Shown piece by piece: positions 1-3,000 of a stretch of 57,699 nucleotides of DNA. Made by a program: the position numbers. The stretch lies in contig JAFSID010000076.1 of assembly GCA_017439965.1 (NCBI GenBank), forward strand, positions 1 through 57,699, read 5' to 3'. Each line of letters begins with the position of its first letter. The stretch's first letter is position 1. The DNA comes from Clostridia bacterium (lineage in GTDB: Bacteria; Bacillota; Clostridia; Oscillospirales; SIG627).

Positions 1-3000
1 GCAAACGTTCACGAAGCGCAGTATGCACAAGGAACAAAGGATTTTATTTCAAAATTTGAAATAGCATTAAAAGAATGTAACGAGAGCGAATATTGGCTTG
101 AGCTTCTTTATGAAACTAATTCGATTAGTGATAATGAGTTTAATAAAATGCAAAGTGCGTGTATTGAGCTTCGCAGAATGTTAGTTTCGACTGTTACAAC
201 TATAAAATCAAAACAATAACCCGGCTAACAAGTGCCCGAAAACCCTTGGAAATACAGGGCTTTCGGGCATTTATGCAATTTGGAAAAATGCTTCTGCAAC
301 ACTTTTGACAACACTCCGTTAATAGACTACGGAGACAGCCGATATATTTGATATTTTGGCTATCAAAATACGGATTATACACCACGATTTACGCCTTAAA
401 CACCACAGACTTAGGAGTGGGAGTAATACCACACTCCCGAAAGGTCTTGCAAATAAAGGACTTTGGAGATTTTGTAGCTCTCAAGTAAATAGCACAAAAA
501 GTTAAAACAGAAGCATAAAAAAGATAATGAACCCACAGCAGAATTTTTGTTGTACAAACAAAAATTCGCAAGTTTTATAAAACCTCTTTATTTTTGCAGC
601 TTATTATGATATAATAACAAGGCGACACAGTTTAATATTTTTTCGAGTAGGCATACTTTGGGTAAAAACGTATGCCTTGATGTCATATCCTACTCGGAAT
701 GAACTGTGTCGCAACAGAAGTCAAACATCGTTTTTCGGTGCGTGGCTTCGGTCACGCACTTTTTTATTAAACTAATAATGGAGGTTTAAGCTATGGAAGA
801 GATAAAAAAAGGTATTAATACTGACAATCAGGAGGAATTATATACTCTGTACATCCATACTTGCCTTGAAAACGATAAAGTTTACGTTGGAATTACGAGC
901 AAAGATGCGAAAAACCGTTGGTTAGATAGAGAAAGTTATAAAGGCAATTCTGATTTGTATTCCGATATAAAAAAATATGGTTGGGATAATGGCTTTCATC
1001 ATAAAATCGTGGCAGATAATCTTGTATGGGAGAAGGCAAAGGAGTCTGAAAAATTCTTCATAGAGACCTTTGATTCTACAAACCCCGAAAAAGGTTATAA
1101 TCACAGAAAGGGTAATAACCGACAAGGCATTTCTCGTGAACGCGCTAATATCGGAACCAAAATCCAAATTTTGCGCAAAAATAAAGGTATCACTCAGTTT
1201 GATTTGGCAGATGCTCTTGATCTTTCGAGAGCAACTATATCAAATTACGAAGTCAACAGAAGATCGCCAAGCATTGATGAACTGAAAAGGTTTGCGGATT
1301 ACTTCGGTGTTGGTCTTGATTATTTCGGAACAGAAGCAGCCAATGAAAGTTTTGAGATAAGTTCTCGTGTTCGTGGTTATTTCAAAAATGAGAATATGTC
1401 TTTAGATGACAAAATTGAACTTTTCAATGACATTCTTTCCGCCTATTATCTGTATGTAATAGATAACAAATAAAATTTGAGATTTCGAGGTGTTTACCAT
1501 AGAACAAAGAGGTATAAGTGTTCAACAAGCAGTTGCAATTATGAACCAAAAGGACCATTTTCAAACTAAATTGGAGAAACTGCGTGTTTCACTAAACATA
1601 TCACAAGGCAAACTCGCAAAATTAGCGAGAATTCCCGTTCGCACTATACAATGTTACGAGCAAAGAGTTAGAGACATAGATAGTGCAAGATTAAGCACAT
1701 TACTTGATTTATGCATAGTGTTAAATTGCACGCTAAAAGACATTTTAGAAGATAGTGACAACATCAATAAACTTGAACAAGTTCTTGATATTCCATCTAA
1801 AACGGTTAGTTTTGTTGACACCGCCGAAGAAACATCTGCTTCGGAAAATACATATGAGAAAAGTTTGATCGAAAAATACTTTTATAACGAAGCTTTATCC
1901 GACTTAACAGAAGATCAAAAAGCCGGCATTGCGTTTGTGTCTAAGGATTTTCCTGAACAATGGAAAAACATTCTTAAACTTAGATATATAGATCTTCTTA
2001 CTTTAGATGATATAGCTGCTCAAAAAGGCATAACACGTGTGCGAGTGCGACAAATTGCTCTCAAAGCAATAAAACGACTTGAAGAATACGAAAGTTCAGA
2101 ATATGTTGTTTCGGGATTACAGACAAGTCAACAAAAGGCTGAGCAAGAGCAGAACGACAGACTGTTGTTTGATCGCTCTATTGATGAATTAAACCTTTCT
2201 GGCAGAGCGCATAACTGTTTAATGCGGGCAGGTTATACAACCATAGGAGAGGTTGTTTTAGCAAGAAAAGAGCTTATTAAAATTAAGAACATCGGTAAAC
2301 ATGTCGTTGAGGAAATATGCGATAAAATAGACCTATATACAAAAGATTTTATAAGCAAAGGATAGTTGACTATGTTTAATGATTATATTTGGAGAACATA
2401 TTTAGGCGGAACTGGAAAAGAAGTGGTTAATTTCTTTGAAGAAAACCTCTCAAATAATTTTTCAAAAGAATACGCTGATAAAATATGTGAATTTCATAGA
2501 GCATATTGTCCAAGTAAGGTTGTTAATGAATCATTACATAGTGAATTAGTCGATGCGTATGAGGATATTGCAGAAGGTATTTGGTTTCTTGAAGAAGGTG
2601 AATATTCGATTGAATCTGCAATTTCATACATTTTTAATGGCTTTCTTAACGAAGATGGTGCAACCCCACAAAAGGTATTTAATTTCTTTTCGGGTTCGGT
2701 AGCGTTTTTTACCACACTTTTTGCAAGAGAATTACCCGAACTGTTTATTCCTTACTATTTTACACTCAACTTTAATATCTTTGAGAAAATAGCACAGGAG
2801 TTTGAAATAATTCTTCCGGAGATTCCCATCAAAAAAGATTATGAGGGAAGATTTTTATACTACGGTAAAATATGCGAGGCATTATACGATTTTAGAGAGA
2901 AACATAATATGTCCGCTTATGAACTATGTGCTTTCCTTTATGACTTTGCACCTAAATACGTTGGTGGTGCTAAAAGTTATATAATTAAAGATATTCCAGC

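Follow-up and report, generated by a model that had tools for sequence, protein, structure and literature searches.

In the window analysed here, the 57,699 nucleotides (nt) of contig JAFSID010000076.1 from a Clostridia bacterium (GCA_017439965.1; Oscillospirales, SIG627), a mobile gene cassette encodes a protein of 291 amino acids (aa) that joins in one chain a helix-turn-helix (HTH) domain of the XRE type, a sigma-70 region 4 (sigma4) and a domain like the C-terminal domain of the RNA polymerase (RNAP) alpha subunit (alpha-CTD). This is a real, conserved protein of uncultured gut Clostridia, and it is neither a sigma factor nor an RpoA. We favour, with moderate confidence, a role as sequence-specific DNA-binding regulator of its own cassette, in which the XRE head would provide operator specificity and the sigma4/alpha-CTD module would sit on an adjacent −35/UP-like site, probably occluding the promoter.

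Three domains in a single chain

An earlier note on this DNA had described the open reading frame (ORF) of this protein (Table 1) as carrying three separable segments with family signatures, and the three peptide segments that it quoted all occur within the translation. Profile searches bear out the assignments. In Pfam, with the curated gathering scores as thresholds, RNA_pol_A_CTD matched residues 220–280 (E = 3.6e-16, 59.1 bits against a cut-off of 23.8), Sigma70_r4 residues 155–197 (E = 3.7e-9, 36.4 bits against 24.1) and HTH_3 (PF01381) residues 28–83 (E = 8.8e-6, 26.1 bits against 23); HTH_26 also matched the N-terminal domain (24.6 bits against 22). When the PDB sequences were compared with a profile of the family, RpoA C-terminal domains were found with E values down to 8.6e-14, and the best matches of the sigma part were region 4 of primary sigma factors (E about 1e-6). 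The start codon is doubtful, since the start of some relatives corresponds to residue 9 and the structural model has low confidence at residues 1–6; this has no effect on the three-domain architecture.

The structure prediction that the note had called for agrees with the profiles. An AlphaFold2 model, built with 23 family members as input, contained three folded helical domains with a mean predicted local distance difference test score (pLDDT) of 84.7, disorder being confined to residues 1–6 and 104–118. In a Foldseek comparison with the PDB, the alpha-CTD part superimposed on alpha-CTD structures with a template modelling score, TM(target), of 0.83–0.85 and a root-mean-square deviation (rmsd) of 1.1–1.2 Å, and sigma factors were among the matches of the model. 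The XRE head matched CylR2, 434 Cro and C.AhdI, with TM(target) of 0.77–0.80 and rmsd of 1.1–2.0 Å, as well as C.BclI and CapH. Its helices span residues 27–78 in a five-helix, lambda-repressor-like fold and are preceded by a family-specific helix (residues 11–19). The linker at residues 104–118 differs in length between family members. Beyond it, a conserved helix with the family motif YPxNLLxDIF, here YEKSLIEKYF, leads into region 4. We rejected this helix as a remnant of sigma region 3.2, because phmmer aligns sigma-A from region 4.1 onward and the alignments upstream of it are insignificant.

Region 4 of sigma factors reads the −35 element, and the alpha-CTD reads UP elements and contacts activators; as the note had claimed, a −35-reading module of sigma and a UP-reading module of alpha are thus present in one polypeptide. 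The rest of the parent proteins is missing. Sigma region 2, which is responsible for core binding, −10 recognition and melting, is the universally conserved part of sigma; no match to Sigma70_r2 or Sigma70_r3 was found in the 291-aa protein even at E values up to 1, and no Pfam match to the alpha N-terminal domain (alpha-NTD) was found either. Because these parts are absent, the protein can neither serve as a sigma factor and initiate transcription nor be assembled into RNAP. The NCBIfam models point the same way: those for rpoA scored 37–55 bits against cut-offs of 228–523, aligning solely at model positions ~205–311, and those for sigma factors stayed far below cut-off, matching with their C-terminal ends only (sigma70-ECF, 31 bits against 42.9). 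Homology in region 4 is common to the sigma-70 family, including MzaA of the MZA system, whereas regions 2 and 3 of that family are absent here. The MzaA model NF041931 scored 38.1 bits against a cut-off of 800, over its C-terminal 130 positions only, and the PADLOC model for MzaA gave an E value of 6e-4; we therefore rejected an identity with MzaA, since the score is far below cut-off and there is no full-length match. A literature search on MzaA found nothing relevant.

Distribution and relation to a family of sigma4/alpha-CTD fusions

A word-indexed search of 5.8 billion proteins recovered the same architecture throughout nine clusters, all metagenomic. When 1.84 billion representatives (clusters at the 50% level) were searched exhaustively with a profile, about 15 full-length three-domain representatives emerged, all unnamed, and Pfam confirmed the three domains in the representatives tested, the most divergent ones excepted. 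The protein is encoded on independent contigs and metagenome-assembled genomes (MAGs) at 25–98% identity.

Some 39 of the best 150 representatives match residues 115–285 alone. These are proteins of ~180–260 aa in which Pfam finds Sigma70_r4 followed by RNA_pol_A_CTD without an XRE HTH (e.g., P0055, P0096 and P0129). Alignment of the three-domain family with 14 such two-domain proteins by hhalign gave a probability of 99.96% and an E value of 6.7e-39 over 169 columns (residues 117–285 of the query), covering the YPxNLLxDIF helix, region 4, a Y..G linker and the alpha-CTD. Because of this collinearity, the C-terminal 170 residues are a complete member of an unnamed family of sigma4/alpha-CTD fusions, to which, judging from the alignment, the XRE head was added at the N-terminus. 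The two-domain proteins keep the canonical RNLGKKS hairpin, which differs in the XRE-fused subfamily (see below).

Other combinations of the same parts also exist: XRE plus sigma4 without alpha-CTD (P0020, P0021, P0042), XRE plus alpha-CTD without sigma4 (P0019), the XRE head alone (P0046, P0074, P0136), and sigma4/alpha-CTD with other N- or C-terminal additions (P0018, P0022, P0024). The parts are thus shuffled as modules. Many very large proteins (~400–2200 aa; e.g., P0025, P0029, P0069, P0084) with three to seven tandem alpha-CTD-like repeats also scored high against the family profile, through their alpha-CTD part alone.

The earlier note knew of no characterised protein with this fusion. 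This stands in so far as our literature search found no paper describing either the XRE/sigma4/alpha-CTD fusion or the domain pair, and NCBIfam and Pfam hold no name for the sigma4/alpha-CTD family; however, the sigma4/alpha-CTD core is itself recurrent, and it is the XRE-fused form alone that is rare. The components are known; of the three-domain architecture and its setting in a cassette, the literature searched contains no description.

In the GenBank phage collection, the protein and a relative made of sigma4/alpha-CTD alone, both used as queries, gave single-domain matches only, with no coverage of 80% or more. Three scans of IMG/VR gave no relative with both domains, the sole match (L025) being to the sigma4 part alone. 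Since, in addition, the product of the gene downstream (gene 3, see below) had no match in the phage collection, we do not claim a phage origin.

Conservation of DNA-contact residues

The ratio of nonsynonymous to synonymous substitution rates (dN/dS) was 0.10–0.16 overall across five orthologous copies. It was low in each domain (0.05–0.27) and higher in the linker at residues 100–120 (0.3–0.6). All three domains are thus under purifying selection.

Conservation of single residues was read from a 23-sequence alignment of the family, with Escherichia coli alpha and sigma70 numbering taken from an alignment with chains of RpoA and sigma-A. Of the first alpha-CTD helix, R239 (alpha R265) is invariant, N242 (alpha N268) nearly so, and L244 also belongs to the invariant or nearly invariant positions; G269, the equivalent of alpha G296, is likewise kept among the best conserved. 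In the sigma recognition helix, R185 and Q188 (sigma70 R586 and Q589) are nearly invariant, and the closest relatives read TRERVRQI, with contact residues identical to those of the sigma-A sequence TRERIRQI. The equivalents of these residues contact DNA in sigma4/−35 and alpha-CTD/UP structures (PDB 1KU7, 1LB2, 3N97). The best-conserved positions thus correspond, by alignment, to the DNA-contact residues of the parent domains. The positions equivalent to R584 and R588 are variable in more distant members. Because the recognition helix varies in this way, the comparison argues for diverged, specific targets rather than for universal recognition of the −35 element.

In the holoenzyme structures, sigma region 4 and the proximal alpha-CTD lie side by side. 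Both modules are present here, in an order that would suit this geometry, with the C-terminal end of sigma4 abutting the N-terminal face of the proximal alpha-CTD. The protein resembles this holoenzyme unit in its sigma-A-type recognition helix and in the alpha contact residues listed above. It differs in that the modules are covalently joined in a free-standing chain, lacking sigma regions 1–3 and the alpha-NTD and carrying an added XRE domain, and in a 4-residue deletion between regions 4.1 and 4.2. In addition, the alpha 261-determinant, which touches sigma in the holoenzyme, is not kept in the subfamily, nor are the equivalents of K298 and S299.

Linkage to nuclease genes and sibling cassettes

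The gene of the 291-aa protein is the second of four in a unit with a single upstream promoter-like site. It starts 17 nt after gene 1, which encodes a predicted GIY-YIG nuclease, and gene 3, which encodes a predicted restriction-endonuclease-like protein, starts 6 nt after its stop codon. A homologue of gene 3 also directly follows the regulator gene in L021, where the regulator is 54% identical, and in L022 and L023 (43%); in L019 a GIY-YIG-HTH gene (78% identity) precedes a regulator of 47% identity. The linkage of regulator and nuclease is therefore conserved at deep divergence.

In the sibling cassettes of L014 and L015 a spacer of 13 nt, without the regulator gene, separates genes 1 and 3 (1473–2372 in the window versus 4985–4997 in L014), so that the cassettes differ precisely by the presence or absence of this one gene. 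There, gene 3 is followed by an ORF for a 99-aa stand-alone XRE protein that is 42% identical to residues 8–95 of the regulator (E = 6e-15), including the family-specific N-terminal helix. Since L014 and L015 encode this homologue where the 291-aa gene is absent, this cassette type always carries the XRE head, be it by itself or with the sigma4/alpha-CTD extension. This suggests that the regulatory role resides in the head and that the sigma4/alpha-CTD part is an add-on. We consider the interchange the strongest evidence that the protein would be the cassette's own regulator, with an RNAP-derived module modifying a conventional regulator. In L008, a 97%-identical regulator gene lies next to an allele of gene 3 with 59% identity that is apparently disrupted (ORFs of 127 and 284 aa). 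This mismatch of identities, and the presence or absence of the regulator between conserved neighbours, suggest that the cassettes are recombination mosaics.

The XRE head also resembles in fold the controller (C) proteins of restriction-modification systems, C.AhdI and C.BclI, and CapH (TM(target) 0.66–0.80 for the same five-helix fold), a modelled likeness that we count in favour of a regulator. C proteins are small XRE proteins that control an endonuclease/methyltransferase pair via C-box operators. The likeness extends to an operon with nuclease genes and to the existence of stand-alone XRE versions of 96–103 aa. Unlike C proteins, the 291-aa protein has some 190 extra residues with two more DNA-binding modules; the cassette has no methyltransferase gene detectable with Pfam, NCBIfam, PADLOC or PHROG, and no C-box-like operator was found.

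Proposed mode of action and alternatives

That the protein binds DNA, where it binds and whether it represses or activates are inferences. The regulator would be co-transcribed with the two predicted nucleases, and autoregulation of the nuclease genes is most likely. Its XRE head, orthologous to the small stand-alone regulators, would bind an operator in the cassette; the sigma4/alpha-CTD module would then bind a −35/UP-like tract beside this operator, its two parts side by side as in the holoenzyme. The upstream half of the promoter would thus be occupied and transcription repressed by occlusion, the net effect being autoregulation of two potentially toxic nucleases. The earlier note had proposed that the protein could occupy or mimic contacts between promoter and RNAP, as a decoy, a super-repressor or a recruiter. 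The gene context argues against a global mimic of RNAP–promoter contacts and for a local, cassette-specific regulator, because sibling cassettes carry a stand-alone homologue of the XRE head instead.

Several observations weigh against this reading. The DNA upstream of the putative −10 is rich in A/T, and at a spacing of 17 bp it offers no good −35 that the module could occlude. No operator or repeated motif could be assigned in the promoter region of the cassette, the repeats at 520–800 being mostly stems of the leader RNA; in L021 and L022, upstream regions contain promoter-like sequences and TGACA repeats, with nothing common to both. Because of the missing operator and −35, repression by occlusion is less certain than the rest of the favoured reading. 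At the protein level, the window copy has the recognition helix TRVRVRQI, with V184 where sigma-A and the closest relatives have a base-contacting Glu. In the second hairpin of the alpha-CTD, the equivalents of K298 and S299 are lost in the subfamily (here H271 and V272), for which reason the DNA affinity of this domain may be lowered. The arrangement of the domains relative to each other is uncertain in the model (predicted template modelling score, pTM, 0.44). Distant homologues precede other cargo, namely a Macro-domain protein or an HTH protein and an ABC transporter, and one has BrxL as its upstream neighbour, separated from it by a small ORF; the downstream cargo of the distant homologues is unrelated to genes 3 and 4, so the target would not always be the nuclease pair. 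Finally, the cassette sequence was found in sequencing runs of DNA gut metagenomes only.

The alternative that survives best, which we nevertheless consider unlikely, is an activator or RNAP recruiter: tethered by the XRE head, the sigma4-like domain would dock either on the beta-flap or on the DNA preceding a weak promoter and switch the cassette on, and the alpha-CTD-like domain may touch RNAP or a further factor. Such switching is ascribed to the small sigma-region-4-like late activators of phages and elements of Firmicutes, and controller proteins, which the XRE head resembles, activate via contact with sigma region 4. The promoter itself fits, being an extended −10 without a usable −35, a kind that can need an activator, and the conserved terminator between promoter and genes indicates that expression is clearly gated. 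PHROG families labelled 'RNA polymerase sigma factor' or transcriptional regulator also match the sigma part. However, the protein has no sigma region 2 or 3 for stable binding to core, the beta-flap in the holoenzyme is already taken by the resident sigma-A, and what is most conserved are the DNA-contact residues, not the known core-contact surfaces.

Improbable, in our view, is a decoy or guard in which sigma4 and alpha-CTD would imitate the RNAP surfaces that phages seize, so that their capture or modification lifts repression by the XRE head and frees the nucleases. Phage takeover proteins include anti-sigma4 factors and ADP-ribosyltransferases that act on alpha R265, and the R265 equivalent is invariant even where the neighbouring DNA-backbone contacts have drifted. 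The gene shares an AT-rich mobile cassette with two predicted nucleases; one homologue is the neighbour of BrxL noted above, another lies directly upstream of the Macro-domain (ADP-ribose-processing) protein, and homologues of the 490-aa gene 3 product occur beside Eco57I/ResIII genes. PADLOC also gave weak similarity to MzaA and to the alpha-CTD-like segment of PglW. These contexts are compatible with a role in defence or in a mobile element, yet they come from few, single short contigs, and the support for a decoy is purely from gene context. PADLOC matched no defence system, and the conserved residues of the sigma recognition helix matter for DNA and not for known binding of phage proteins. 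That the sigma4/alpha-CTD part is bait more than a DNA reader, resembling the two RNAP surfaces most often seized or modified by phages, so that phage attack on host transcription would trip the cassette and make it a sensor of transcription takeover, seems to us decidedly improbable. From the gene's precise presence/absence between two conserved neighbours and from its uncertain start codon one might suspect that it is a remnant in decay, an artefact of frameshift or assembly, or a fusion that is accidental or has no function. This is effectively refuted by the architecture on many independent contigs (about 15 clusters at the 50% level), a dN/dS of about 0.1 in every domain and the confident predicted folds.

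Organisation of the cassette

Table 1. Features of the regulator gene and of the cassette in the window.
Feature	Position	Strand	Details
XRE-HTH/sigma region 4/alpha-CTD protein (gene 2)	1490..2365	+	291 aa, GTG start
XRE (Cro/C1-type) HTH domain	1568..1756	+	aa 27–89; Pfam HTH_3/HTH_26, Foldseek
Disordered, fast-evolving linker	1799..1843	+	aa 104–118; pLDDT <50, dN/dS 0.3–0.6
Conserved helix, sigma region 4.1/4.2 and sigma-A-like C-terminal tail	1853..2116	+	aa 122–209
RpoA alpha-CTD-like helix-hairpin-helix domain	2147..2329	+	aa 220–280; Pfam, PDB profile, Foldseek
Mobile 3.96-kb cassette: promoter/leader and four co-oriented, tightly spaced genes	557..4515	+	blastn, composition
Putative extended −10, TGATATAAT	606..615	+	Read from the sequence; kept in L009, L010, L008
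Structured 5′ leader ahead of gene 1, forming a long hairpin	622..712	+	Folding, covariation
Intrinsic-terminator-like hairpin and T-run between leader and gene 1	737..768	+	Terminator scan
Gene 1: GIY-YIG nuclease domain fused to XRE HTH	793..1473	+	226 aa; Pfam, PHROG
Gene 3	2372..3844	+	490 aa; alternative TTG start at 2366 gives 492 aa
Gene 4	3868..4506	+	212 aa; no family match

Blastn and base composition delimit a discrete mobile cassette. The region 557–4515 is 91–93% identical in nucleotides to L009 and L010, contigs of two other Clostridia MAGs, with unrelated flanks, and the GC content is ~34% over the first ~5 kb of the window versus 40–50% further on. In the Hadza gut contigs L001 and L002 the same genes are flanked by glnS and feoAB, and three serine-recombinase genes lie a few kb upstream of them. 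Across the left boundary, at 541–567, runs a perfect inverted repeat of 11 nt, GAATTTTTGTT/AACAAAAATTC, which may take part in recombination or mark an insertion site; homology to L009 and L010 begins at 557. Positions 1–219 of the window, ~340 bp to the left of this boundary, encode the C-terminal part of a 23S rRNA-intervening-sequence (four-helix-bundle) protein (PF05635, E = 3.7e-15). In L021, the regulator/gene 3 pair lies ~350 bp downstream of a tRNA gene, and short hairpin-like repeats, 'ggtggat...gaaat', are found between them (L021 170–250), which suggests insertion at a tRNA-adjacent hotspot.

Upstream of gene 1, the leader forms a long hairpin of three segments whose loop, TTGGTAAAAA, is conserved, and the terminator comes after it (618–770; also in L008, L009, L010 and at 4085–4240 in L014). 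Its minimum free energy of −56.2 kcal/mol corresponds to z = −7.1 relative to shuffled sequences, and compensatory changes occur in 15 of the 34 predicted pairs across six loci. The stem of the terminator covaries as well, with GTGCGTG/CACGCAC versus GTGCATG/CATGCAC in L001/L010. The leader is present upstream of gene 1 in L014 too, which has no regulator gene, so its presence is independent of the latter. No Rfam family matches it; it may be an attenuator or riboregulator, or a small RNA of the cassette.

The GIY-YIG and HTH_3 domains of the gene 1 product scored 27.5 and 56.7 bits, respectively, in Pfam, and its PHROG matches are homing-endonuclease families. The gene 3 product consists of an N-terminal helical domain, a poorly modelled middle and a C-terminal PD-(D/E)xK restriction-endonuclease-like domain, in which D396...E415-x-K417 is invariant and for which Foldseek found the N-terminal nuclease of HsdR (3h1t, probability 0.98) and the restriction-endonuclease-like 3ijm. 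Its central region (residues 200–350) is strongly conserved, yet modelled by AlphaFold with a pLDDT <50. The family, with 55–60% identity across its members, is very widespread in Clostridia, with at least 698 clusters at 90% identity, all annotated as 'hypothetical'; outside this cassette type its genes are found alone or with the Eco57I/ResIII neighbours mentioned above. The product matched phrog_37753 over its full length (E = 2.3e-81), despite having no match in the GenBank phage collection.

The gene 4 product had no match in Pfam, NCBIfam, PADLOC or PHROG. Its C-terminal peptide, ETEIxKxLSxRAxEYLMFxDD (4440–4506), is conserved. The 56-aa ORF that closes the L014 cassette (L014 6803–6973) matches the last 21 aa of the product but is unrelated to the rest of it. 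Within this tail, NLSGRALEYLM resembles NLSGRAHNCLM in the first alpha-CTD helix of the regulator; we did not accept this as homology to the alpha-CTD, the L014 counterpart being less similar.

Significance

Sigma region 4 and the alpha-CTD, textbook components of RNAP that are defined through their position in the holoenzyme, occur here outside RNAP, fused to each other and to a repressor head, in a form that is conserved and under selection. Promoter-reading modules have thus been recruited as building blocks of free-standing regulators, and the three-domain form gives a first functional handle on the unnamed sigma4/alpha-CTD family. Its interchangeability with a plain 99-aa XRE regulator in one cassette type places the module in the local control of mobile nuclease cassettes, and the two forms, XRE alone and XRE with sigma4 and alpha-CTD, offer a clean comparison that would reveal the contribution of the module. 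Should the module occlude or pre-mark −35/UP sites, promoter-level repression in Firmicutes would gain a compact tool of natural origin; as a decoy, the module would represent a new sensing principle in phage defence.

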